NCBI GenBank assembly: GCA_022711495.1
Contig: JAKLEX010000001.1
Span: 291,379 to 355,378, forward strand
From: Patescibacteria group bacterium
GTDB taxonomy: Bacteria; Patescibacteriota; Minisyncoccia; Phycocordibacterales; JAACPR01
Reading direction: 5' to 3'
Length of the DNA stretch: 64,000 bases
The number at the start of each line of letters is the position of its first letter. Within the stretch, counting starts at the first letter, position 1. Under the pieces are notes generated by a model. That model saw only the letters and a list, made by a program, of their open reading frames with translations. It had not been told where the DNA came from and did not search any database. Below are positions 2,448-36,640 of the stretch, piece after piece. The translations under genes were made by a program, and so were the position numbers.

Positions 2448-4358
2448 CTATAAGATGCTTTCGGCGTCAACCTGAACTTTGAATTGCGGCGGCAGATTTT
2501 GCAATTGGTGAATCAGATATTTGTCCGGCCACTCTTCGCGCGGGATTTTTATCATCCCGTGGACGATTTTTTGCCCGCGAACCGTTTCAATAAAGGCCGG
2601 ATAAGTAACCAATTCGCCCGGCTTCAGCGCCTCAATGATTTCGGCGAATTGTTTTTCAATCTGCGCCGCGGTTTTGGCCGAGAGAGACAGTTTGATAATT
2701 ATGCTGAATGGCGGATAGTTGAATTTTTTTCTATCTATGAATTCCTGGCGGTAGAAATCAGTCAGGTTGCCTTCAATGATATTTTTGAAGAGGATTTCCT
2801 CCTTATTTCTGGTTTGGATGATAAACTCCTGCGAAGCTAAAGCTCGAGCGCGCAAAAGAATGTTCAGAATCCTTTCCTTGATTCGGAAATCGGGCAAAGC
2901 GAACATTGAATCAATGGAAATGATACCAACTCTTTCAACTTGTTGATGCAGATACAATAAAGCCATTTCTGTCCCAATCAGAATACCGGCCGGCGATTCA
3001 TTGAAAGCCGCGGCGATTTTTCGAGCCTTTTCCGGAGTTTCAGCGTGATCTTTATCCAAGATAAAAAGATTGGCTCCCGGGAATTCTTTTCTTATTTCAT
3101 TTTCAACTTTCTCAATCCCAATTCCGAGCAGATTCAATCTCCAGCCGCCGCAATTTTTGCAGACAAAATCCGTCTCTCTGGTCAAACCGCAAGCGTGGCA
3201 ACGTAAATGATTTCCGCGCTCTTTTAGACTTTTGCCATGTAAAACCGTCGGCGCGCTGCAGCGATCACAATGCACGATGGTTCCGCAATCAGCGCAGAGT
3301 ATAATCGGCGCGATTCCTCGGCGATTGCTTAGCAGAAAGACGCGCTCGTTTTTCTTCAAAGATTCGGCCAGAGTTTTTCTCAGTGTTTCGGAAACGGCCG
3401 CTTCGGCGGCAATAATCTCGTTTTTATCTTTGAGGTTTATTATTTTTTGATTGGCGTCAGTTACTGATCGAAATTTTATCGGCGCGTGTTCCAAAAATTC
3501 CTGCTGGCCGTATCGCCACAGAGTTTCAACCCGGAGCATCAAATCTCCCAGCAAATAGTTGACGCCCATCGCCTCGGCGTATTTTTCCAGGAAAAATCTG
3601 AAATCAAAATAAGGTCTTCGGCGGGTTTTATATGAAGCCGAACTTTCTCTTTCTACGATGATGACGCCGATCTTTTCCAGAGGAACGCCAACGAAGCCGA
3701 CGGTGGCGATGACCAAGCTCGGCCGGTCTCGGACGGTTATTTCTTTCCATCTTTCAATCATCTTGTTTTTGCTTACTTTGCTGTGTAAAACAAAAGTGTG
3801 TTTTTCAATTCCGCGCGCCAATTCTTCCTCGGCGTAGTTGGCATCTTCTATGGTCGGAGCGCAGAACAAAATAGATTTACCGCGGGCGAATTGTTCGCGG
3901 ATAATGCTTTTGTATTCGGAATAACGGTCCTTGTCTTCGGTCTGTAAAATATATTTAGGTCGCGAATCTTTGCCGGTTTCTTTATCTTTTTCTTTTGCTC
4001 CGAGATCTTTTTGAAATCTGGAAACATTTTTTAAAACCTCTTCCGGTATCAACGATTGGATAATCGTTCCGGTTCCGGTAGCGAAATAATGCGCTGTTTT
4101 TTCCGCCGCAGAAATAAATTCTTTGGAGAAGAGGGAATTTTTTGAAATGCTGCGGATTTTTTTCAAGGCAAACCGCGACGATTTAATTTCTGATTTTAGA
4201 TTTTTAACCTCGGAACAGCCGATGACCAGTCCCTTGGTCAGTTTGTTCCGCAAGGGAATAGTCACGATGGCGCCCGGCGAAACTTTTTGTCCGGAGAAAT
4301 AAGACAGAGAAGAACTCCGGACGGATCTTGAAAATGGCGTAACCTCAACAATATGCAT
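2448..4358 (-). CDS. priA: primosomal protein N' (replication restart helicase PriA)
   Basis: 636 aa. A helicase core is present with cysteine-rich zinc-binding insertions CADCG...CDRC...CHACG...CKNCGG. Confidence 0.8.
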   Translation of the reverse strand: MHIVEVTPFSRSVRSSSLSYFSGQKVSPGAIVTIPLRNKLTKGLVIGCSEVKNLKSEIKSSRFALKKIRSISKNSLFSKEFISAAEKTAHYFATGTGTIIQSLIPEEVLKNVSRFQKDLGAKEKDKETGKDSRPKYILQTEDKDRYSEYKSIIREQFARGKSILFCAPTIEDANYAEEELARGIEKHTFVLHSKVSKNKMIERWKEITVRDRPSLVIATVGFVGVPLEKIGVIIVERESSASYKTRRRPYFDFRFFLEKYAEAMGVNYLLGDLMLRVETLWRYGQQEFLEHAPIKFRSVTDANQKIINLKDKNEIIAAEAAVSETLRKTLAESLKKNERVFLLSNRRGIAPIILCADCGTIVHCDRCSAPTVLHGKSLKERGNHLRCHACGLTRETDFVCKNCGGWRLNLLGIGIEKVENEIRKEFPGANLFILDKDHAETPEKARKIAAAFNESPAGILIGTEMALLYLHQQVERVGIISIDSMFALPDFRIKERILNILLRARALASQEFIIQTRNKEEILFKNIIEGNLTDFYRQEFIDRKKFNYPPFSIIIKLSLSAKTAAQIEKQFAEIIEALKPGELVTYPAFIETVRGQKIVHGMIKIPREEWPDKYLIHQLQNLPPQFKVQVDAESIL

Positions 4359-4413
4359 TACCTATTTTTATTACTTTTTTGGCAAATTGTAAAATTTTAA
4401 AAAAAGTATTAGT

Positions 4414-5439
4414 ATGATGTCACTTATGGGAATCTTTACACCTAAATTGGGGATAGACCTTGGTACAGCCAACACTTTAGTCTTTGTTCCAGGTCGCGGC
4501 ATTGTTTTGAACGAACCATCCGTTGTGGCTGTTTCCGAACAGGACAATAAGATTTTAGCCGTCGGCGCTGAAGCTCGCGATATGATCGGCAAAACGCCGG
4601 GAAACATTGTGGCTTATCGTCCGATGCGCGATGGTGTCATTGCCGATTATCGCGTTACCGAGGCCATGCTCTCTTATTTTATAAACAAAGCTCTACCACG
4701 GTTTAATCTTTTCAAACCGGAAGTTTTGATTTCTGTTCCGGCCGGCATCACTTCCACGGAACGCCGCGCGGTCATAGAAGCGGCTATTAAATCCGGCGCC
4801 AAAAACGCCTATGTCGTAAAGGAACCAATTCTGGCGGCTATTGGTGCCGGCATCCCTATAAATGATGCTCAGGGACGAATGGTTGTTGATATCGGCGGAG
4901 GCACAACCGACGTGGCTGTTATTTCGTTGGGCGGAATTGTGGCCTCAACTTCAGTTAAAGTCGCTGGCGATAAAATTGACAATGCCATTGCTGATTATGT
5001 TAAGAAAACTTTCAATTTGGCCATTGGCGATAAGACGGCCGAACGAATAAAGATACGAATCGGCTCGGCGGTGTTGTTGGATGAAGAATTGAAGATGGAC
5101 ATAAAGGGCCGAGACTTTTTGACTGGGCTACCACGCTCTATTGAAATTAAAACCAACGAAATCGTCAAAGCCATAAACCGCGAACTCCGCGACATCATCA
5201 AGGCCATAAAAGATGTCTTGCAGGAAACTCCACCGGAATTGTCTTCAGACATTATTGATTTTGGAATTACTATGACTGGCGGAACGGCGCAATTGCGAAA
5301 CATGACCGAACTTGTTTTCCGTCGAACCGGCGTCAAAGCGCATCTGGCTAAAGATCCGTTATTCTGTGTCGCCAAAGGAACCGGCATTGCTCTCAACCAT
5401 CTTGATACTTATAAAAAGAGTATTATCGCCAAGAGATAA
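4414..5439 (+). CDS. mreB: rod shape-determining protein MreB (paralog 1)
   Basis: An actin-like ATPase with LGIDLGTANTLVFV phosphate-1 and DIGGGTTDVAV phosphate-2 motifs. The first ATG may be 3-15 nt downstream of the ORF start. Confidence 0.9.
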   Translation: MMSLMGIFTPKLGIDLGTANTLVFVPGRGIVLNEPSVVAVSEQDNKILAVGAEARDMIGKTPGNIVAYRPMRDGVIADYRVTEAMLSYFINKALPRFNLFKPEVLISVPAGITSTERRAVIEAAIKSGAKNAYVVKEPILAAIGAGIPINDAQGRMVVDIGGGTTDVAVISLGGIVASTSVKVAGDKIDNAIADYVKKTFNLAIGDKTAERIKIRIGSAVLLDEELKMDIKGRDFLTGLPRSIEIKTNEIVKAINRELRDIIKAIKDVLQETPPELSSDIIDFGITMTGGTAQLRNMTELVFRRTGVKAHLAKDPLFCVAKGTGIALNHLDTYKKSIIAKR

Positions 5440-9178: not shown

Positions 9179-10261
9179 ATGAAAGATTTCTGGGGAAAAA
9201 TCAAGAAATATATAGAAAAAATCAAGCCGATGTTGTCTAACGATATCGGTATTGATTTGGGAACAGCCAATACCTTGGTTTATGTTCCGGGAAAAGGCGT
9301 GGTCATAAATGAGCCGTCGGTTGTAGCCGTTAATCAGAAAACCGGCCAAGTTGTGGCTGTCGGCGCCGAAGCCAAAAGGATGCTCGGTCGGACACCGGCC
9401 CACCTGATCGCCACTCGGCCGATTGTTGACGGAGTTATTTCTGATTTTGAAATTACGGAAGAAATGATTGCTTATTTGGTTAACAAATCGCAGGAGGGTA
9501 ATAAAAAACTTCTCGGTCCGCGAGTCGTCGTCGGGGTTCCCAGCGGCGTGACTAACGTTGAGGCCCGGGCCGCGCGGGACGCCGCTATCAATGCTGGCGC
9601 GCGCAAGGTTTTCATCGTGGAGGAGCCGATGGCCGCCGCCATTGGTATCAAATTACCGGTCAATGATCCCATCGGCAGTATGATTATTGACATCGGCGGT
9701 GGAACAACTGACATCGCCGTGATTTCGCTCGGTGGAATTGTCAGATCAAAGAATCTCAATGTCGCCGGTGACGAGATGAACGAGGACATCATCAACTATA
9801 TTCGCAATGAATTTAAAATTTTAATTGGCGAGAAAACGGCCGAACAAGTCAAAATTGATATTGGTAAAGTTCTTCCGGATGGCGAATCGCTCGAATCTTC
9901 CGTTCGCGGTCGCGATTTAGTTTCCGGTTTGCCGCGTGAGGTGATCATTACAGAATCTGATGTTCGGGAAGCCATCGCTCAATCAATTGACAACATTATA
10001 GAAGCCGCCCGTGAAGTTTTGGAAACGACTCCGCCTGAAATTGTCGCTGACGTTATGAAAGCGGGAATTAATTTGGTCGGCGGCGGAGCGCTGATTCGCG
10101 GGCTGGATAAATTGCTGACTCAAGAATTACAAATACCGGTAAAAGTCGCTCCAGATCCTTTAACCGCTGTGGCCAGGGGAGCGGGAATTATTTTGGAGAA
10201 CCTAAAATTATACGAAAGCGTTTTGTTAGAAAATGAGGACGAACTTCCCCCAAAGGAATAA
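9179..10261 (+). CDS. mreB: rod shape-determining protein MreB (paralog 2, in mreBCD-pbp2 operon)
   Basis: The motifs IGIDLGTANTLVYV and DIGGGTTDIAVISLGG are present. mreC and mreD follow. Confidence 0.9.
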   Translation: MKDFWGKIKKYIEKIKPMLSNDIGIDLGTANTLVYVPGKGVVINEPSVVAVNQKTGQVVAVGAEAKRMLGRTPAHLIATRPIVDGVISDFEITEEMIAYLVNKSQEGNKKLLGPRVVVGVPSGVTNVEARAARDAAINAGARKVFIVEEPMAAAIGIKLPVNDPIGSMIIDIGGGTTDIAVISLGGIVRSKNLNVAGDEMNEDIINYIRNEFKILIGEKTAEQVKIDIGKVLPDGESLESSVRGRDLVSGLPREVIITESDVREAIAQSIDNIIEAAREVLETTPPEIVADVMKAGINLVGGGALIRGLDKLLTQELQIPVKVAPDPLTAVARGAGIILENLKLYESVLLENEDELPPKE

Positions 10262-11015
10262 AAAACAAGAACTTAAGAGAAAAATTCATCAAGCAATTTT
10301 AGTTGTTGTTATTCTTGCCGCCCTGTTCTTTTTTGGTTCTTTTGTCAGAGGGCTTGTTCAATTTATCAATGCGCCAATTAGCGCCGCCAAAGAAATTATT
10401 ACGCGGCCGTTTGGAACTTTTTTTGGTTATTTTGCTTCAAAAAGCGAATTGGTAGAACGAAATCTAGCTTTGGATGGAGAGAACAAAAAATTAAAAATAG
10501 AGCTTCTGACCGTTGAATCTCTGCGTCGGGAAAACGATTCTTTAAAAGACCTTTTAAATTATAACCAGGAAAACCCGAATAATCTTTTGGCTAAAGTTTT
10601 AAATCGTCCGCCGGTTTCTCCCTACGATACCTTTGTCATAGACCTAGGTAGTGATAAAGTCGCTGTCGCTCAAGAAGTTTTCTATCAAAATATTCCCATT
10701 GGTCGGATCGCTGAAGTTTATAGTGGCAGTGCCATAGTTAGAATTTATTCTTCTTCCGGTGAGAAGATTTTTGTTGATATCGACGAAGATCTGACTAATA
10801 TTGAAGCCCTGGGAATCGGTGGCGGGACTTTCCGGGCCAAAATACCAAAAGACCTGATAATTGATGTTGGCGCCATGGTTACTCTGCCGGGCGGTGTCTT
10901 GCTTGGCCAGGTAGAAGGAATTGAGCCGGAACCTTCCGATACTTTCCAAAATCTATATTTCAGGTATCCATTTAAATTAAGCCAAATTGATTGGGTTACC
11001 GTTCAAGCGGATTAA
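10233..11015 (+). CDS. mreC: rod shape-determining protein MreC
   Basis: 260 aa. An N-terminal transmembrane segment is followed by a coiled coil (NLALDGENKKLKIELLTVESLRRENDSLKDL) and a beta-rich C-terminal domain. It sits between mreB and mreD. Confidence 0.75.
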   Translation: MRTNFPQRNKKQELKRKIHQAILVVVILAALFFFGSFVRGLVQFINAPISAAKEIITRPFGTFFGYFASKSELVERNLALDGENKKLKIELLTVESLRRENDSLKDLLNYNQENPNNLLAKVLNRPPVSPYDTFVIDLGSDKVAVAQEVFYQNIPIGRIAEVYSGSAIVRIYSSSGEKIFVDIDEDLTNIEALGIGGGTFRAKIPKDLIIDVGAMVTLPGGVLLGQVEGIEPEPSDTFQNLYFRYPFKLSQIDWVTVQAD

Positions 11016-13522: not shown

Positions 13523-13552
13523 ATTCTCGTCATATTTCCAGATAAAGAACTA

Positions 13553-13580
13553 AAAACCGGCCAGCTATTGGTCGGTTTTT
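13553..13580 (+). terminator. rho-independent terminator after greA
   Basis: AAAACCGGCC...GGTCGGTTTTT forms a hairpin followed by a T-run. Confidence 0.6.
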
Positions 13581-13604
13581 AGTCTATTTCAATGAAATTG
13601 GTGA

Positions 13605-15388: not shown

Positions 15389-17126
15389 AAAGAATCTAGT
15401 CGCAAAAGGGAGGGTTTATTTTGTTTTTGCCGTTTTCATTTTAATAAGTCTTCTTTTGATTTCTAAATTGTATTTGGTGCAGATTGTTGAAGGCGAATTT
15501 TATTCTCAAAGAGCCGATCGGCAACACATTCGACCAACGGCCAGCATTTTTGATCGCGGTTCCATTTTTTTCACCACTAAAGACGGCGAGAAGATAAACG
15601 CCGCGACTTTAAAGTCGGGCTTCAAAGTCGCCATTAGTCCGAGCCTGATTATTCATCCAGAAGATGTTTTTAATAATTTAAGTTTATATTTGGCCATTCC
15701 GGAAGAATCTTATTTGAATCACGCGGAGAAAATTGGTGACCCGTACGAAGAAATTGCTCGTCGAGTTCCGTATGAAATCGGCCAGCAGATTAAAGATCTA
15801 AATATCAACGGAGTATCGGTTATTGATGAAAATTGGCGTTCTTATCCTGGTGATGAACTGGCCGCGCAAACTGTCGGTTTTGTGGCTTACGGCGATGATG
15901 ACGACATAAAGGGACGCTATGGCTTGGAAAGACAATACGAAGACATTCTTGGTCGTGATCATAGAAATATCTTTACTAACTTTTTTGTTGAAATTTTTTC
16001 CGAAGCGGCGGAAGCTTTGAAAGACGAGAATAGCATGGAAGGCTCCATTGTTACCACAATAGAACCGGAAGTTCAGCTATTTGTTGATAATGAACTTAAA
16101 ACCGTGCGAGAGACCTGGTCTCCGAAAAAGGCTGGAGCGATTGTTATGGACCCAAACGATGGAGCTATTCGCGCCCTGTCTCTTAGCCCCAACTTTGATC
16201 TTAACCAATTTAATTTAGTCTCTGACCCAGCTATTTACAAAAACGACCTGATTGAAAGCGTCTATGAGATGGGTTCAATTATAAAACCCCTAACTTTGTC
16301 AGTTGGTCTTGACGTTGGTGCCATCACGCCCAATTCGACTTATGAAGACCGGGGTTATATTTCTTTAAACAACAAAACCATTTGGAATCATGATAAAAAA
16401 GCTCACGGAGTCGTCAGCATGCAAGAAGTTCTCAATAAATCTTTAAATACCGGCGCCGGTTTTGTTGAACAGAAAATGGGCAATGAAATTTTTGCGGATT
16501 ATATGAAAAAACTTTTTGACCAGAAAACCGGCGTTGATTTACCTAATGAAGCCAAATCAATTCTTTATCCGAATTTAAGTAGCAATACTGACATTGAATA
16601 TGTCACGGCCTCTTATGGGCAGGGCATCGCCATGAGTCCGATTAGCGTTATTCGAGCGCTGGCCGCCCTGGGTAACGGTGGCAAATTAGTGACTCCTCAC
16701 TTGGTTGAGCAAATAGAATACGATCTGGGTTTTTCTAAAGATTTAGATTGGCCAGAACCAGTTTCGGTTTTCAAACCGGAGACGTCTGAAAACATTACGC
16801 GGATGTTGGTTGAGACAGTGGACACGGCTTTGCGCGGTGGACAATTTTCTCTTAGAAATTACAGCATCGCCGCCAAAACCGGCACGGCGCAGATCCCGAA
16901 AAGTTACGAGGCCGGGTATTACGACGATCGTTTTCTGCACTCATTTTTCGGATATTTTCCCGCTTACGATCCACAATTTATAATTTTTCTATATCAGCTT
17001 GAACCGGTTGGCGGACAATACGCTGCCGATACTTTAACCGAACCCTTTATGAATATTACTAAATTTCTGATAAATTATTATTCAATACCGGCCGATAGGC
17101 AAAACTCAAATGAAAGCATTAATTAG
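15381..17126 (+). CDS. ftsI: peptidoglycan D,D-transpeptidase FtsI (PBP3-like class B PBP)
   Basis: 581 aa. An N-terminal transmembrane segment, SIIKP (SxxK), SLN and KTGTAQ motifs are present. dcw position. Confidence 0.8.
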   Translation: MNKKNLVAKGRVYFVFAVFILISLLLISKLYLVQIVEGEFYSQRADRQHIRPTASIFDRGSIFFTTKDGEKINAATLKSGFKVAISPSLIIHPEDVFNNLSLYLAIPEESYLNHAEKIGDPYEEIARRVPYEIGQQIKDLNINGVSVIDENWRSYPGDELAAQTVGFVAYGDDDDIKGRYGLERQYEDILGRDHRNIFTNFFVEIFSEAAEALKDENSMEGSIVTTIEPEVQLFVDNELKTVRETWSPKKAGAIVMDPNDGAIRALSLSPNFDLNQFNLVSDPAIYKNDLIESVYEMGSIIKPLTLSVGLDVGAITPNSTYEDRGYISLNNKTIWNHDKKAHGVVSMQEVLNKSLNTGAGFVEQKMGNEIFADYMKKLFDQKTGVDLPNEAKSILYPNLSSNTDIEYVTASYGQGIAMSPISVIRALAALGNGGKLVTPHLVEQIEYDLGFSKDLDWPEPVSVFKPETSENITRMLVETVDTALRGGQFSLRNYSIAAKTGTAQIPKSYEAGYYDDRFLHSFFGYFPAYDPQFIIFLYQLEPVGGQYAADTLTEPFMNITKFLINYYSIPADRQNSNESIN

Positions 17127-18417
17127 AAAAGTCATATTTATAATACTAACGATTGAAGCAAAAATTGTTCTTTTGCGTTATCGTCCGAAGATTATCGTTG
17201 TTAGTGGCACGGTTGGTAAGACGACGACCAAGGATGCCATTTTCTCGGCCCTCTCAAAGACTTTTCATGTTAGAAAGAATTCTAAAAGTTTGAACAGTGA
17301 AATTGGTGTGCCCTTAACTATTTTGGGTCTGGAAACCGGTTGGAATAATCCGTGGCGCTGGTTGTCTAATCTAGTCATTGGATTTTTGGAGATAATCTAT
17401 TATCCAAAATATCCCGAGTGGTTAGTAATTGAAGTCGGAATTGATCATCCGGGAGACATGAAAAAAACTGCTTCATGGCTTAAGCCGAATGTTGCGGTTT
17501 TGACGGCCTTTGGCCAAGTTCCGGTTCACGTAGAATTTTTTGAAGGACCAGACGATGTCACGAAAGAAGAAGCTGATATCATCAATTATTTACGCCGAGA
17601 CGGAATTATTGTCTTGAACGCCGACGACGAAAAAGCTCTGCGGTTGAAAGGGAAGACGAATCACAAAGTTTATACTTTCGGTAAGGGAGAGAATGCCGAC
17701 CTGGTTGCTTCTCATTATTCGGTGGTTTATGAATCTGTAAATGGCCGACCAGTTCCGCGCGGCGTTTCTTTCAAGGTCAGTTATTTGGGCAGTATTCTGC
17801 CGATTTCAGTAAGAAATGTTGTTGGCGATCAATTTGTTTATCCGATTCTGGCGGCGCTTTCCGTTGGCGTAGCGGTTAATTCATCGTTGGTTTCTTCTTT
17901 GGAGGGTTTGCGAAATTTTAAAGCGCCAAAAGGTCGCATGAATTTACTGGCTGGTGAAAACGAGACGATTATTATTGACGACAGTTACAATTCTTCACCG
18001 ATGGCGGCGACCAGCGCCATTCGCAATTTAGCCGAAATAGAAACGGCGGGGTCAAGAATCGCGGTGCTTGGCGATATGGCAGAAATCGGGCGATTCTCCG
18101 CCAGTGAACATCGCAAAATCGGAGCTTTAATTAAACAAAAGAAAATTGATATTTTGATAACTGTCGGCCGCGCTTCGGAATTGATGAATGAGCAGGCGAT
18201 TGAAGAGGGCATGGCTCAATCGCGCAATTATCATTTCAGTCATTCGGAAGAAGCTATCGCGACAGTTAAGAGATATTTAAAGCCGGGCAATATTATTTTG
18301 GTTAAGGGATCGCAATCAATGCGGATGGAAAGAATCACTAAGGCGATTATTTTGGAAAAGGATTCGGCTTCGGATTTGATTGTTAGGCAGGAAAAAGAAT
18401 GGCTAGCGAGAAGTTAA
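17110..18417 (+). CDS. murF: UDP-N-acetylmuramoyl-tripeptide--D-alanyl-D-alanine ligase MurF
   Basis: The Mur ligase P-loop GTVGKTTTKD and the IIDDSYNSSP motif (the DDSYN signature of MurF) are present. Confidence 0.75.
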   Translation: MKALIRKVIFIILTIEAKIVLLRYRPKIIVVSGTVGKTTTKDAIFSALSKTFHVRKNSKSLNSEIGVPLTILGLETGWNNPWRWLSNLVIGFLEIIYYPKYPEWLVIEVGIDHPGDMKKTASWLKPNVAVLTAFGQVPVHVEFFEGPDDVTKEEADIINYLRRDGIIVLNADDEKALRLKGKTNHKVYTFGKGENADLVASHYSVVYESVNGRPVPRGVSFKVSYLGSILPISVRNVVGDQFVYPILAALSVGVAVNSSLVSSLEGLRNFKAPKGRMNLLAGENETIIIDDSYNSSPMAATSAIRNLAEIETAGSRIAVLGDMAEIGRFSASEHRKIGALIKQKKIDILITVGRASELMNEQAIEEGMAQSRNYHFSHSEEAIATVKRYLKPGNIILVKGSQSMRMERITKAIILEKDSASDLIVRQEKEWLARS

Positions 18418-18582
18418 GAAGTAACAAAACTCCAAAGCATTTTTCAAGACACGCGTCGGCTCCTCCAGCGAGGAGCCGCGCTACTCTCGGTCGGTTTTCG
18501 GCACTCTTCGGTGCCGACCAAGCAAAACCGACCTGCGAGAGTCTCTCAAAATGCTTTGGAGTTTTGTTAGGGAGCTTAACTT
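18411..18582. ncRNA. highly structured palindromic element (candidate ncRNA / MITE-like repeat): 8+22 bp perfect closing stem enclosing three internal hairpins
   Basis: AAGTTAAG..GTAACAAAACTCCAAAGCATTTT at 18411-18443 pairs perfectly with AAAATGCTTTGGAGTTTTGTTA..CTTAACTT at 18550-18582. The internal hairpins are CGGCTCCTC-cagcg-GAGGAGCCG, GTCGGTTTT[CGGCAC-tcttcg-GTGCCG]...AAAACCGAC and GAGA-gtc-TCTC. The overlapping 68 aa ORF has no RBS and is judged non-coding. Confidence 0.5.
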
Positions 18583-18613
18583 CTCATTTAAAAATGCTAT
18601 ATTAATTGCCACT

Positions 18614-18687
18614 GGCCCTATCGTCTAACGGTTAGGACATCGCCTTCTCAAGGCGGAAATCAGAGTTCGATTCTCTGTAGGGTCACC
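18614..18687 (+). tRNA. tRNA-Glu (anticodon CTC)
   Basis: GGCCCTA acceptor (G2-U71 wobble), TCGCC-TTCTCAA-GGCGG anticodon arm with anticodon CTC, a 4 nt variable loop, CAGAG-TTCGATT-CTCTG T-arm, discriminator A and an encoded CC. Confidence 0.85.
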
Positions 18688-27437: not shown

Positions 27438-27656
27438 ATGGTTGTAAGAATGCGTAGCAATAGTTCTCATACGGGTAATCGCCGATCTCATATTAAATTG
27501 AGCAAGCCGGCGTTAACTCGCGACCAAAATGGCGCTCTATCGTTGCGCCATCGTGTTTCTCCGATTTCTGGAATGTACAAAGGAAAACAGGTTCTTGATT
27601 TAACTAAGAAGCTTACTAAGAAAGCCAAGAAGATAGAAGAGACAGAAAAGAAATAG
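27438..27656 (+). CDS. rpmF: 50S ribosomal protein bL32 (cysteine-free form)
   Basis: RRSHIKLSKPAL...LRHRVSPISGMYKGKQVL aligns with the bL32 consensus RRSHxALxxPAL..C..CG...LxHRVCPxCGYYKGxxV. All four zinc-ligand positions are substituted. Start taken at the MVVRMRS codon. Confidence 0.6.
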   Translation: MVVRMRSNSSHTGNRRSHIKLSKPALTRDQNGALSLRHRVSPISGMYKGKQVLDLTKKLTKKAKKIEETEKK

Positions 27657-27657
27657 G

Positions 27658-27717
27658 AAATTGGCAAAACACTTTTGAGAGACTCTCGCGTGTCTCGAAA
27701 AAGTGTTTTGCCAATTT
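27658..27717. terminator. giant near-perfect hairpin (about 27 bp stem) between rpmF and nusB; likely terminator/palindromic repeat
   Basis: AAATTGGCAAAACACTTTTGAGAGAC-tctcgcgt-GTCTCGAAAAAGTGTTTTGCCAATTT. A T-rich tract follows. The centre shares the core GCGAGAGTCTCTCAAAA with the element at 18535. Confidence 0.5.
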
Positions 27718-27768
27718 TCCCTTTACTTTTCTGTATAAAAAGTTAAAATTGTCCTGTACCTTAAAAGC

Positions 27769-28683
27769 ATGGCGAATCGGCACCTTTCACGATCAATAGT
27801 GTTGCAGTCTCTCTTCGAATGGGATTTTCGGGGAGATGCCAAATTTGATGTTGATGAAACTATTTTGCGCAATGCTACGGAATTTGCTCCGGGAATCAGC
27901 GACGCGCCCTTTATGAAGAAGTTGCTTGAAACAGTTCTGGCCAAAAAATCCGAGCTGGATAAAATTATTACCAAAGCCGCGCCCGATTGGCCCCTAGATA
28001 AAATCTCCATTGTTGATAGAAATATTTTGCGTATTGGTCTGGCCGAACTGCTTTTTGCTGACCGAGAAGAAGTCCCGTCTAAAGTCGCCATAAACGAAGC
28101 TATTGAATTGGCTAAAACTTTCGGCGGCGAATCTTCCAGTAAGTTTGTTAACGGCGTTTTAGGCGCAGTTTATAAAGAGCTGGGAGAGCCAGGTAAAGAC
28201 GAATCAAAATCCAAAAAGCGTCGCGATATACCTTTTGAACAGATGCCTGTTGAGAAAAAGGCCGGCGCGGTTATTTATTCTGTTCATGACGGAGGAATCT
28301 ATATTGCTTTGGTGCATGATGTTTTCGGCCACTGGACTTTATCAAAAGGTGGAATTGAGTCTGGTGAAACCGACGAGGTCGGGGCCGTTCGCGCCATTAA
28401 GCAAGAACTTGGTCTGGACATAGAAATCGTTGACAGAATCGGGGAGAACGAATACGTTGCCAATCATCCGGAAAAAGGACAGCACCGTAAGCAAGTTGTT
28501 TACTTTTTAGCCAAGTCCAAATTTGAAGAACTTAAATTGAGTCAGTCTGGCGGTCTTGATAACGCGCAGTGGTTTAAGCTGGCCGACATCCTTGACCTTA
28601 ATTTTTATGATGATATTCTGCCTCTAGTTACTAAGGCGTTGAAGAAATTAGCGGAAATAAATGTCCGAGTAACGACTACTTAA
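27769..28683 (+). CDS. nusB: NusB-NUDIX fusion protein (N-terminal NusB antitermination fold, C-terminal NUDIX hydrolase-like domain with degenerate Nudix box)
   Basis: The N-terminal 130 aa are NusB-like (SRSIVLQSLFEWDF...RNILRIGLAELLF). A lysine-rich linker follows. The C-terminus has GGIESGETDEVGAVRAIKQELGL, matching GX5EX7R.UX.EXGU with REUxEE replaced by RAIKQE. Confidence 0.6.
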   Translation: MANRHLSRSIVLQSLFEWDFRGDAKFDVDETILRNATEFAPGISDAPFMKKLLETVLAKKSELDKIITKAAPDWPLDKISIVDRNILRIGLAELLFADREEVPSKVAINEAIELAKTFGGESSSKFVNGVLGAVYKELGEPGKDESKSKKRRDIPFEQMPVEKKAGAVIYSVHDGGIYIALVHDVFGHWTLSKGGIESGETDEVGAVRAIKQELGLDIEIVDRIGENEYVANHPEKGQHRKQVVYFLAKSKFEELKLSQSGGLDNAQWFKLADILDLNFYDDILPLVTKALKKLAEINVRVTTT

Positions 28684-29379
28684 ATGAATTACAAAAAAAT
28701 AGCTGAAAAGCTCGGCGTAGATTTTAATGATGAGAGTCTGTTAAAACAGGCTTTTACTCACCGTTCTTATTTGAATGAAAACCGCGGCAGCAATCTTCAA
28801 CATAATGAACGTCTGGAATTTTTAGGTGACGCGGTTATGGAACTGGCTACAACCGATTACTTATATCGTAGCTTTCCGAATAAAACCGAGGGCGATCTGA
28901 CGGCTTTACGCGCTTCGCTGGTCAACACCCAAACGATTTCCAATGTCGCCAACGAGCTTGGTTTAAATGAATATTTGTTGTTATCTAAAGGTGAAGCTAA
29001 AGATCGGGGTCGTGCTCGACAATATATTTTAGCCAACACTTTTGAATCAATTATTGGCGCCATTTATCTGGATCAAGGGTACGAACGAGCCAAATTATTT
29101 ATTTATCAAAACCTTATGAGTCGATTGGAAGAAATTCTAACTCAAGGTTCTTGGATTGACGCCAAAAGCAAATTACAAGAAATAGTTCAAGAAAAATTAG
29201 GAATTACTCCGACTTACAAAACTATAAAAGAAGAAGGCCCGGACCATGACAAAAAGTTCACTGTTGCCCTATTCTATGGCGAAAAAGAAATCAATATTGG
29301 TCAGGGGAAATCCAAACAGGAAGCCGAACAAAGTGTGGCTCAGAAGGTGTTGCTGGAAGAAGCCGCTTCTTCAAAATAA
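28684..29379 (+). CDS. rnc: ribonuclease III
   Basis: ERLEFLGDAV is the RNase III signature. A C-terminal dsRBD is present. Confidence 0.9.
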   Translation: MNYKKIAEKLGVDFNDESLLKQAFTHRSYLNENRGSNLQHNERLEFLGDAVMELATTDYLYRSFPNKTEGDLTALRASLVNTQTISNVANELGLNEYLLLSKGEAKDRGRARQYILANTFESIIGAIYLDQGYERAKLFIYQNLMSRLEEILTQGSWIDAKSKLQEIVQEKLGITPTYKTIKEEGPDHDKKFTVALFYGEKEINIGQGKSKQEAEQSVAQKVLLEEAASSK

Positions 29380-34463: not shown

Positions 34464-34503
34464 AAAACCCAATCAAAACCTCTAAACTATTTTTTCGAGA
34501 TGT

Positions 34504-34538
34504 GCGTCAGCTCCCCCAGTAGGGAGCTGCGCTTTTTT
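34504..34538 (+). terminator. rho-independent terminator after the KH gene
   Basis: GCGTCAGCTCCC-ccagta-GGGAGCTGCGC forms a hairpin followed by TTTTTT. Confidence 0.6.
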
Positions 34539-34656
34539 GGGACGATTTTTCACCTTCGGTGAAACCAAGAAGAATCATCCTGCGGAAGTTTCTTAAAAAG
34601 TGTTTGGAATTATTTATTTGTTTTATAGTTTGAAATGAGCTAATCTGAACTTTAAT

Positions 34657-35298
34657 ATGAATTTCCATATAATCTCACTTTTTCCAAATTCCATGAGCTC
34701 TTATATTAAGGAGTCTATTATCGGTCGCGCCATAAAGGATAAAAAAATTAGAGTTAAATTTTATAACCCAAGAGATTTTACCAGGGACAAATGGCGCCGG
34801 ATTGATCAAAAGCCGTATGGCGGTGGACCGGGCATGGTTATTCAAGCCGAGCCGGTTATTCGCGCAATCTCCAAGGCCATTGCTCGAAAAAATAAATACA
34901 AAATTGTTTTTCTGTCTCCTGGCGGTAAGCAGTTTGATACTAAAACCGCTCGACAAATCGCCCAATCTATAAAAGATTTGGTAATCATCGCCGGCCGCTA
35001 TGAAGGGATCGATGAAAGGGTTAATAAAGTTTTTAAGACCGAGAAAATTTCCGTTGGTCCGTATGTTTTGACTGGCGGGGAATTGCCGGCCCTGATTTTG
35101 GTTGATTCAATTTCTCGCCAGATTGAGGGCGTTTTGGGCAACGATTTGTCATTAGAAGAACGGCGGATTTCTTCAAACAAAGTTTATACGCGTCCGGAGA
35201 TCTTCAAAATAAAAGATAAAAATTACCGTGTGCCAAAAGTTCTTCTAAGCGGTGACCATAAGAAAATCAACATGTGGAAAAACGCCGGTAACAAATAA
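34657..35298 (+). CDS. trmD: tRNA (guanine37-N1)-methyltransferase TrmD
   Basis: SPOUT knot motifs YGGGPGMV and IAGRYEGIDERV are present. Confidence 0.9.
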   Translation: MNFHIISLFPNSMSSYIKESIIGRAIKDKKIRVKFYNPRDFTRDKWRRIDQKPYGGGPGMVIQAEPVIRAISKAIARKNKYKIVFLSPGGKQFDTKTARQIAQSIKDLVIIAGRYEGIDERVNKVFKTEKISVGPYVLTGGELPALILVDSISRQIEGVLGNDLSLEERRISSNKVYTRPEIFKIKDKNYRVPKVLLSGDHKKINMWKNAGNK

Positions 35299-35371
35299 AG
35301 ACGCATTTTGCTCGTCGTGGTACAATATCCACATAGGTTTTTATAATTTAGTTCACAATATAATTATCCTC

Positions 35372-36640
35372 ATGTTTTTTTCTAGATCATTAAGACGAAA
35401 CACCTCAAAAGGTTTCACTCTCCTGGAAATGCTCTTGGTCATCGCCATCATCGCCATCTTAGCTGCTATCGTTATCGTGGCCATCAACCCAGCGCGGCAA
35501 CTAGCCCAAGCTCGAAATGCTCAAAGAGCTAGTGATCTCAATGCTATCCATAAAGCTGTCCAACAGTACTACATAGATAACCTGGAATACCCAGACGGTT
35601 TAGATAGTAGTCTGCAAGAAATCTGCAATACTGGCGGAGGAGAAGATTGTATTGATATTGAAGACGCTTTAGTACCAACTTATCTTTCTGCTCTACCAGA
35701 AAATCCAAATGGTGGTAATTACGAAATCGCTCTACAGACTGGCAACAAACTAGCTTTAGTTGCTCCTGGTTCAAAAGAACAAGGACTTGGCGGCATTGTC
35801 ATTGGAACTTCAACTTCGTTAGTTGAAGAAGAAGGTGGTGGAGGGGGAGAAGAATGTGATGTTACTGCTGCCGGATCCTATGACTCCGCTACTGATGGCG
35901 ATTACACAGTTTTAACTTTTGATGGGGCCGGCACGTTCACAGTTAACTCTGGTACCTGTGATGCTGATATTCTTGTTGTTGGCGGTGGAGGAGGAGGAGG
36001 GCAGAAACATTCCGGAGGTGGTGGAGGCGGCGGCGTTATAGAAGAAAGCGTATCTGGTTTATCTGGTGAAATAGGAATCTCTGTTGGTTCTGGTGGCGCA
36101 GGTGGGCCAGCTGGTGATCCTTATAATGCTGGAGAAAACGGCGGAGATAGCTCTTTTGGTGATGATTATATTGCAATTGGTGGCGGTGGAGGAGGGGGTT
36201 ATAGTACAGCAAATGAAGCCGGTGACGGTGGTTCTGGGGGAGGCGCCGGGCAGAATAATGATGATCCGCCAGGACTTGGTGAAGCTGGACAAGGTAATAA
36301 TGGAGGTGACGAGTCTAGCGGCCGAGGCGGAGGCGGTGGTGGGGCCGGCGCGGTTGGAGAGGACTCTGATGGCACTAACGGCGGAACCGGAGGTGATGGC
36401 ATTTCTTCTGATATAACAGGTGTCGCCACCTATTATGGTGGTGGCGGAGGTGGAGTTGGTCCATCCCAAGCCGCTGGCGGACAGGGAGGCGGTGGTTCTG
36501 GTGCAAATTACAGCGATGAAGGATCGTTTCCGGCGGAAGATGGAACGGATGGACTTGGTGGTGGCGGAGGTGGAGGTCAAGATGCCGCAGGCGGAGATGG
36601 CGGTGATGGTGTTGTTATAGTCCGATATATAGCCAGCTAG
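35372..36640 (+). CDS. type IV pilin-like protein with very large glycine/aspartate-rich low-complexity C-terminal domain
   Basis: A prepilin class III signal MFFSRSLRRNTSKG|FTLLEMLLVIAIIAILAAIVIVAINP is present. A pilin head domain follows (QQYYIDNLEYPDG). About 250 aa are made of runs such as GGGGGGG, GSGGAGG and GGDGGDG. Start chosen at the ATG at 35372 because the ORF's upstream part overlaps trmD. Confidence 0.65.
   Translation: MFFSRSLRRNTSKGFTLLEMLLVIAIIAILAAIVIVAINPARQLAQARNAQRASDLNAIHKAVQQYYIDNLEYPDGLDSSLQEICNTGGGEDCIDIEDALVPTYLSALPENPNGGNYEIALQTGNKLALVAPGSKEQGLGGIVIGTSTSLVEEEGGGGGEECDVTAAGSYDSATDGDYTVLTFDGAGTFTVNSGTCDADILVVGGGGGGGQKHSGGGGGGGVIEESVSGLSGEIGISVGSGGAGGPAGDPYNAGENGGDSSFGDDYIAIGGGGGGGYSTANEAGDGGSGGGAGQNNDDPPGLGEAGQGNNGGDESSGRGGGGGGAGAVGEDSDGTNGGTGGDGISSDITGVATYYGGGGGGVGPSQAAGGQGGGGSGANYSDEGSFPAEDGTDGLGGGGGGGQDAAGGDGGDGVVIVRYIAS
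35980..36600 (+). repeat. degenerate GGN-codon tandem repeats (low-complexity DNA encoding the Gly-rich tail)
   Basis: Reiterated ggtgg(a/t)gg(a/c)gg units occur throughout. Confidence 0.6.

Follow-up and report, generated by a model that had tools for sequence, protein, structure and literature searches.

The window analysed in this study, a 64-kb stretch from a Patescibacteria group bacterium (64,000 nucleotides of contig JAKLEX010000001.1, assembly GCA_022711495.1), contains a spacer between murF (17110–18417, plus strand), the last gene of the local dcw (division and cell wall) block, and tRNA-Glu(CTC) (18614–18687, plus strand), which has a promoter-like site of its own at 18576–18603. 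This spacer is occupied by a structured element, termed E1 (18408–18585), which the murF transcript would enter and in which perfect closing helices of 11 bp and 22 bp enclose two inner domains. E1 belongs, as a pristine long form, to a hitherto undescribed family of hairpin repeats located at terminator positions. The explanation that we favour, and hold to be probable in moderate degree, is that E1 represents a family of structured palindromic repeats specific to one lineage, a narrow clade of Paceibacterota, and that this family serves as a terminator or 3'-end hairpin and has spread at the DNA level.

All parts of E1 are described here on the plus strand. The outer helix pairs its 5' arm GAGAAGTTAAG (18408–18418), which covers the 3'-terminal codons of murF, stop codon (18415–18417) included, with the 3' arm CTTAACTTCTC (18575–18585) in a perfect 11-bp inverted repeat, 8 bp of which had been counted in a first-pass annotation of this DNA. 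The closing helix P1 is formed by its 5' arm TAACAAAACTCCAAAGCATTTT (18422–18443), which begins with an A-rich tract, and the complementary 3' arm AAAATGCTTTGGAGTTTTGTTA (18548–18569; 22/22 positions), the last 8 nt of which, TTTTGTTA (18562–18569), constitute a U-rich tract right behind the G+C-containing part of the stem. The first-pass annotation had described these flanks as one 30-bp helix with zero mismatches; the pairing is indeed perfect, but two helices are present, parted by a 3 × 5-nt internal loop (AAG / GGGAG). Likewise, the label "perfectly palindromic" applies to the flanks only, as the 104-nt centre (18444–18547) is asymmetric, besides being richer in G+C than the flanks. According to the minimum free energy (MFE) structure, this centre starts with P2, where AGAC (18447–18450) pairs with GTCT (18543–18546), and contains two domains in place of the three enclosed hairpins originally proposed. 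Hairpin A (18453–18481), with the layout GCG-U-CGGCUCCUC-CAGC-GAGGAGCCG-CGC, is found in long-form copies only. The composite hairpin B (18483–18542), homologous in all family members and covarying, consists of P3 (ACUCUC/GAGAGU), P4 (GGUCGGUUU/AAACCGACC) and P5 (UCGGCACU-CUUC-GGUGCCGA), and carries a conserved 7-nt bulge, CCAAGCA, together with a UGC bulge. A C(UUCG)G loop had also been assigned to E1; that assignment is out of register, the MFE loop being CUUC closed by U·G, and a true C(UUCG)G loop is present in a paralogue of E1 (termed E5, 34481–34608).

The presence of a structured element at this site, as first proposed, is far beyond chance. The MFE of the E1 RNA is −101.4 kcal/mol for the plus strand and −104.5 for the minus strand, compared with averages near −51 and −55 after shuffling, corresponding to z-scores of −11.5 and −11.9 (−12.2 with DNA parameters), and none of 200 shuffled sequences folded as well. 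Since all pairs of E1 but one are Watson–Crick, the element alone is uninformative on the strand. The identical sequence, with zero differences, lies inside a 36-kb Joint Genome Institute (JGI) contig and in a Logan contig of another run; an assembly artefact was rejected on the grounds that the same sequence recurs across independent assemblies and does so in the interior of long contigs. Two overlapping open reading frames (ORFs) of 68 aa and 43 aa were also discarded, as by-products of the palindrome.

Comparison with related loci separates ancestral from new sequence at the E1 site. The MurF protein of the window is 100% identical to HRY31121.1/HRZ34491.1 from a metagenome-assembled genome (MAG) of Candidatus Paceibacterota bacterium, and relatives with a 66–79% identical MurF keep the order of a penicillin-binding protein (PBP) gene and murF, followed in most by tRNA-Glu(CTC). 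The C-terminus …EWLARS-stop is one residue longer than the …EWL-R-stop of four relatives, indicating that the new sequence begins right behind the Arg codon and provides the stop codon; within GAGAAGTTAAG, GAGA belongs to the ancestral murF and AGTTAAG is an addition with respect to the relatives. At the other end, the promoter-like site of tRNA-Glu reads CTTAACTTCTC...AAAAATG-TATATTAATTGCCA (TTAACT-16-TGnTATATT), such that the outer 3' arm of E1 doubles as the −35 region. The same CTTAACTTCTC sequence lies upstream of tRNA-Glu in the closest relative (locus L003), which is free of the element; because it belongs to a conserved tRNA-Glu promoter there, the outer 3' arm of E1 is no foreign sequence. 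The L003 locus is itself locally rearranged, with about 460 nt without a called gene behind murF (4306–4772) and tRNA-Glu 1.8 kb away on the opposite strand. In other relatives the murF/tRNA-Glu spacer holds 46 nt and no hairpin (L004), a 98-aa ORF (L007) or a different-looking palindrome (L005), the last of which is a short-form copy of the family.

A repeat family at gene ends

Two further copies were found within the window. The first, E2 (27642–27734, plus strand; 93 nt), is a core-less member located after rpmF and before the nusB-NUDIX gene; the 64 kb contain no long inverted repeat besides E1 and E2, which sensitive blastn matched with each other, the plus strand of E2 corresponding to the minus strand of E1. 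E2 has a perfect 21-bp stem and folds with z-scores of −9.5 and −11. The two sequences, read in these orientations, share an exact 17-mer, TTTTGAGAGACTCTCGC, followed by GCGTGTCT(T/C)GAAAAA (flanking 16 nt), and E2 corresponds to an E1-type element that has lost, by a precise deletion, all sequence between GCG...GCG direct repeats, the junction ACGCG/TCGG...CCTGCG/AGAG having become ACGCGAGAG. In six relatives (L017, L019, L021, L023, L025 and L060), the rpmF site carries an ordinary stem plus T-run terminator where the window has E2, with the downstream sequence CTTTACTTTT...AAAGTTAAAATT conserved. The RNase III gene (rnc) lies two genes past E2. A NusB-NUDIX fusion gene with rnc directly behind it (27769–29379) is an arrangement kept in all relatives fetched through NusB homologues, and in a more distant relative (L058, 9348–9500) the nusB-rnc spacer contains degenerate short tandem repeats with CTATT-type units. 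The second copy, E5 (plus strand), is another full long form, situated in the khpA-trmD spacer in the same orientation to its upstream gene as E1. Overlooked by the inverted-repeat scan, E5 has a decayed closing helix and a fold z-score of −4.4; nhmmer recognized it with E = 1.4e-25.

Loci from relatives, fetched around NusB homologues of 72–87% identity, added further members. E3 (L019, 7860–7995, plus strand) is a long form placed directly after smc, with 69% identity to E1 over 154 nt (blastn, E = 4e-14), and its perfect 21-bp closing helix is followed by T7 and then by a TTGACA-17-TATAAT promoter; no element follows smc in the window or in L017, L021, L023, L025 and L060. Next to E3 (L019, 7997–8400), a lineage-specific ORF for a 75-aa membrane protein, with its own TTGACA/TATAAT promoter and terminator, lies between smc and the RNase R gene and is absent from the window, L017 and L021. 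The khpA-trmD spacer holds short forms, i.e., copies with no hairpin A, in L021 (16705–16803, plus), L017 (16720–16818, minus), L019 (11235–11333, minus) and L023 (17174–17273, minus), as well as a mini copy with no P4 or P5 in L060 (17065–17151, plus). The L005 copy (plus strand) is a short form at the same murF-tRNA-Glu locus as E1. E5 and the copies in L021, L017, L019, L005 and L023 gave nhmmer E-values between 1e-19 and 1e-32. The khpA site of L025 has a plain terminator, yet one that has CGAGACACGC in common with the family. Of two independent Logan contigs, L024 ends inside a khpA element and L002 ends 3 nt past E1; palindromes of the family, or heterogeneity at them, may break assemblies.

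In total, the window and six relatives contain eight full copies, one mini copy (L060) and one remnant (E2), at the 3' ends of murF, khpA, smc and rpmF, and their presence varies between close relatives. The suggestion, made at first reading, of a miniature inverted-repeat transposable element (MITE)-like element or repeat family gains support from these copies at different loci. Copies fold with z-scores between −4.4 and −11, and their density amounts to two full copies and one remnant per 64 kb in the window and zero to two per 15–20-kb locus in relatives. The repeat unit is made up of a long, A/T-rich closing helix P1, short P2 and P3 helices with conserved bulges between them, and an apical module, and it comes in three size classes—mini, short (P4-P5) and long (P4-P5 plus side hairpin A), with E1 belonging to the last.

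The covariation check proposed for E1 was carried out on both forms, and the stems of each covary, supporting a conserved fold. In the short forms (n = 5), 89% of cells were paired and 12 of 38 pairs showed double changes, a level not reached by any of 500 shuffles, with 37–54% paired in slid controls; in the long forms (n = 3), the corresponding values were 94%, 10 of 38 pairs (five lying in hairpin A), none of 500 shuffles and 39–54%. These figures come from small samples, of five and three sequences, and the long-form structure was taken from the MFE of E1 itself. Hairpin A alone shows compensatory double changes in 5 of its 12 pairs among E1, E3 and E5, with the loop kept as CAGC or CAGU. 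The GAGAC/GTCTC helix of P2 recurs in E2 and E3, and P1 arms homologous to the 5' arm of P1 in E1 occur in E5, E3 and E2. Conservation extends to unpaired motifs, namely the UGC bulge, CCUGCG(G/A)AG, the CAGC loop and the ACCAAGC bulge. Long inverted arms are present in each copy, several of which share CAAACACTTTT/AAAAGTGTTTG, and these arms are the least conserved part of the unit: most comparisons between loci or with distant relatives gave 36–54% identity for the arms versus 70–89% for the core. Between the murF copy of L005 and the khpA copy of L023, for instance, the cores are 89% identical and the arms 36% identical yet self-complementary. Judging from these alignments, the core evolves more slowly than the arms.

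Neither strand is favoured by the substitutions, with 11 G·U against 13 A·C combinations overall. Moreover, the khpA-trmD element is direct in the window, L021 and L060 and inverted in L017, L019 and L023, where the whole element is flipped, the asymmetric inner-arm mismatch included. Such a flip probably arose from recombination between the element's own inverted arms. Orientation independence and the lack of strand bias would fit a function at the level of the hairpin and propagation at the level of DNA.

No further copies were retrieved from the window and all fetched Paceibacterota loci by a family hidden Markov model (HMM) or by patterns, nor from the window and ten fetched loci (193,597 bases) by a covariance model; pattern searches for additional solo hairpins or mini forms gave none. 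The short-form covariance model R1 recovered nothing beyond the five copies on which it was trained, the reverse strands of these and one marginal match; the long forms escaped it. A scan of metagenome contigs with a 20-mer from the E1 arm returned five matches, all by chance and in coding sequence, the source contig not being among them, and a scan of genome contigs with a 20-mer from the E1 core returned a single chance match in an Anaeromyxobacter tandem repeat; both of these large scans used E1-specific 20-mers, not the conserved family core. IMG/VR scans with the arm, the hairpin, the 17-mer and two degenerate core patterns produced chance matches only, all rejected by nhmmer, and BLAST against phage and plasmid collections found nothing. 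In Rfam 15, nothing apart from tRNAs and generic hairpin matches below threshold came up when E1, E5, E3 and the short forms were scanned with permissive E-values, and the whole window, scanned at gathering score, as well as three loci from relatives yielded tRNAs only; the Rfam check suggested for E1 consequently yielded no family. Finally, we found no relevant account of palindromic, MITE, repetitive extragenic palindromic (REP) or terminator-type elements in the full-text literature searched on candidate phyla radiation (CPR)/Patescibacteria.

A probable role in transcription termination and a proposed spread at the DNA level

The position of the copies argues for a role at transcript ends. 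Every copy starts at the stop codon of a co-directional gene or no more than about 35 nt past it, and each has an A-rich tract before P1 and a T-rich tract after it; in E1, the stem ...GCUUUGGAG is directly followed by UUUUGUUA. Family copies are interchangeable in position with ordinary terminators. The same traits—placement behind stop codons, an A-tract, a stem and a T-tract, and use of the sites at which relatives have their terminators—are those of intrinsic bidirectional terminators, and plain terminators of the window (e.g., at 13549–13583) share the A-tract/T-tract design. A simple terminator scan made no call at E1 because the loop exceeds 8 nt. Ordinary terminators differ from the family in being short and mutually non-homologous, whereas the family hairpins are 90–180 nt long, have a branched and conserved apex, and are homologous across unrelated loci.

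On this basis, the following sequence of events can be proposed. As the murF transcript emerges, the inner hairpins of E1 would fold first, after which the CUCCAAAGCAUUUU/AAAAUGCUUUGGAG part of P1 would close immediately before UUUUGUUA. E1 would then act as an intrinsic, potentially bidirectional terminator and as a hairpin protecting the 3' end, ending the dcw/murF transcript and insulating the tRNA-Glu promoter, the −35 box of which lies in the outer arm. The family may have been propagated and remodelled at the DNA level, through duplication to new gene ends, internal deletion between short direct repeats, which would yield E2-type copies, and inversion through recombination of one inverted arm of a copy with the other.

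Several points weigh against this proposal. What speaks for termination at E1 is its position and architecture, and a 100-nt branched insert is atypical for a terminator hairpin and could slow its closure. The T-tract of E1, TTTTGTTA, is short and interrupted. In L004, murF runs into tRNA-Glu with no hairpin between them, implying that a terminator is not obligatory at this site. In addition, the conserved unpaired motifs (the UGC bulge, the CAGC loop, the CCAAGCA bulge and CCUGCGGAGGA) exceed what a plain terminator needs and hint at recognition by a specific protein or enzyme. These motifs keep two rival explanations alive: a selfish element mobilized in trans, and an RNA or protein-binding module.

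The closest analogues, alongside bidirectional intrinsic terminators, are known families of intergenic repeats. Correia elements of Neisseria (also known as Neisseria miniature insertion sequences, NEMIS) resemble the present family in their length (100–160 nt), their long inverted ends, their two size classes set by an internal segment, and their transcription together with adjacent genes; RNase III cleaves Correia hairpins, which can also serve as terminators. Conserved terminal repeats of 26 bp, TA duplications and copy numbers in the hundreds set them apart from the family described here, with its variable ends, missing duplications and low density. The enterobacterial repetitive intergenic consensus (ERIC, or intergenic repeat unit, IRU) and the REP and REPIN (REP doublet forming hairpin) sequences of Proteobacteria are likewise imperfect palindromes found in transcribed intergenic regions in either orientation, with size variants through internal insertions or deletions in ERIC and compensatory changes that keep the hairpins in REPINs. 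The Paceibacterota family belongs to another phylum, has another sequence and possesses a multi-helix core instead of a simple stem; unlike the situation for REPINs, no gene resembling those for the REP-associated tyrosine transposase (RAYT) or TnpA was found in the window.

Less likely alternatives: a mobile element, a structured RNA or a recombination site

We regard as rather unlikely, though deserving of tentative consideration, that the family is a selfish, non-autonomous mobile element akin to MITEs or REPINs. According to this explanation, an enzyme encoded elsewhere in the genome—e.g., a hairpin-recognizing HUH/Y1 transposase or another recombinase—would mobilize the copies in trans, and the gene-end sites would reflect target preference or tolerance and not a host function. 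The scattering over four kinds of locus, where close relatives differ in the presence of a copy, would be explained in this way, as would the occurrence of both orientations and of size classes through internal deletion or insertion. The pristine arms of E1 suggest a recent origin, cores as much as 89% identical lie at unrelated loci on contigs of two assemblies, and the retention of the motifs whatever the orientation, with no G·U bias, is as expected for recognition at the DNA level. However, the hallmarks of MITEs are present only in part, the copies being dispersed and polymorphic. Comparison with empty or alternative sites in relatives revealed no target-site duplication at E1, E2 or E3, and the arms, although long and inverted in each copy, vary more than any other part of the unit, which runs counter to the terminal inverted repeats of MITEs. 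The low density (two full copies and one remnant in 64 kb) speaks against such an element as well, and the khpA copy keeps its position across most of the clade as if vertically inherited. Furthermore, the window contains housekeeping genes only and no integrase, transposase or reverse transcriptase, as determined by scanning every ORF of 110 aa or more in the window, and the called genes around E1, against Pfam.

A functional structured RNA seems to us quite unlikely. The hairpin would in this case be a 3'-untranslated region (3'-UTR) module, released as an RNA of about 100 nt (e.g., by RNase III cutting P1), or a protein-binding site acting in cis. Compensatory changes that preserve the fold while loops and bulges stay conserved are consistent with such a module, as is the true C(UUCG)G tetraloop of E5. 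Perfect helices of at least 21–22 bp are of RNase III size, the P1 helix measures 22 bp and the genome encodes rnc. The strand signal is divided: the long forms have more G·U than A·C combinations on the gene-sense strand (8 versus 3), and the short forms have the reverse on the reference strand (3 versus 10). Moreover, the khpA transcripts of L017, L019 and L023 carry the complement, yet the same motifs are conserved in them, and the element can be lost or swapped for plain terminators. Of the novel small non-coding RNA (ncRNA) contemplated in the first-pass annotation, the conserved fold has held up, whereas a strand-specific ncRNA is weakened by the missing G·U bias, the two orientations, the lack of room for a promoter of its own and the absence of a match in Rfam. 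Known structured RNAs were rejected individually: 6S RNA, as the family has no large central bubble, is multi-copy and flips its orientation; signal recognition particle (SRP) RNA, given no GNRA/GGAA apex and no Rfam match; retron msr/msd, with no reverse transcriptase present; and self-cleaving ribozymes, for which neither core motifs nor Rfam matches were found.

A related and broader proposition, unlikely in our estimation, is that the conserved core, comprising P2-P3 with its UGC bulge and CCUGCGGAGGA, along with P4-P5 and hairpin A as optional parts, constitutes a recognition module, and hence a new Paceibacterota-specific class of element. It might be the substrate of a hairpin-specific DNA enzyme, copied into terminator positions, or the source of a 3'-UTR RNA released by RNase III, with a function in trans or in protein binding.

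An attC-like or other site-specific recombination site, at the edge of an island next to tRNA-Glu, is highly improbable: E1 does share with integron attC sites a structured, imperfect palindrome with a variable apical structure at a gene 3' end, next to a tRNA and genes without a Pfam match, and the bottom-strand GTTAAGC fits GTTRRRY, but both strands read 5'-GTTAAG...CTTAAC-3', the reverse of the order R'' (RYYYAAC)...R' (GTTRRRY), the boxes are local sequence (the right one ancestral tRNA-Glu promoter, the other murF) absent from other family members, neither an integrase (intI having been suggested as a check) nor a cassette array occurs in the 64 kb, and E1 lies upstream of the tRNA, integrative elements usually using the tRNA 3' end.

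Genomic surroundings and meaning for Patescibacteria

The surroundings of E1 were also revisited. A "truncated dcw cluster" next to E1 finds no support, as all relatives seen have the order mraZ-rsmH-ftsL-PBP-murF followed by non-dcw genes. The adjoining "foreign island" does show a shift in G+C content, albeit a mild one, from about 0.42 to 0.48–0.50. In L025 and L026, a 215-aa gene without a Pfam match also adjoins thrS, a possible counterpart of the 215-aa gene of the window. Elsewhere in the window, this CPR genome encodes two MreB paralogues (4414–5439 and 9179–10261) and MreC (10233–11015). A gene at 35252–36640 specifies a 462-aa pilin-like protein with an N-terminal methylation motif and a glycine-rich domain, and coincides with a GC-skew spike of 0.33 at 36–37 kb.

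To our knowledge, CPR/Patescibacteria have small, streamlined genomes in which repeats and mobile DNA are generally considered scarce, and little of their non-coding repertoire has been mapped. The repeat family provides a handle on the origin and turnover of terminators and intergenic structures in these bacteria. Contig breaks at family members, together with a murF stop codon supplied by E1, matter for the assembly and annotation of MAGs. The family also raises the questions of whether long palindromes homogenize their own arms and whether a hairpin-specific DNA or RNA activity awaits discovery. If its conserved core were indeed a recognition module, the family would be more than an elaborate terminator—and would be so in CPR genomes that otherwise seem free of mobile elements.

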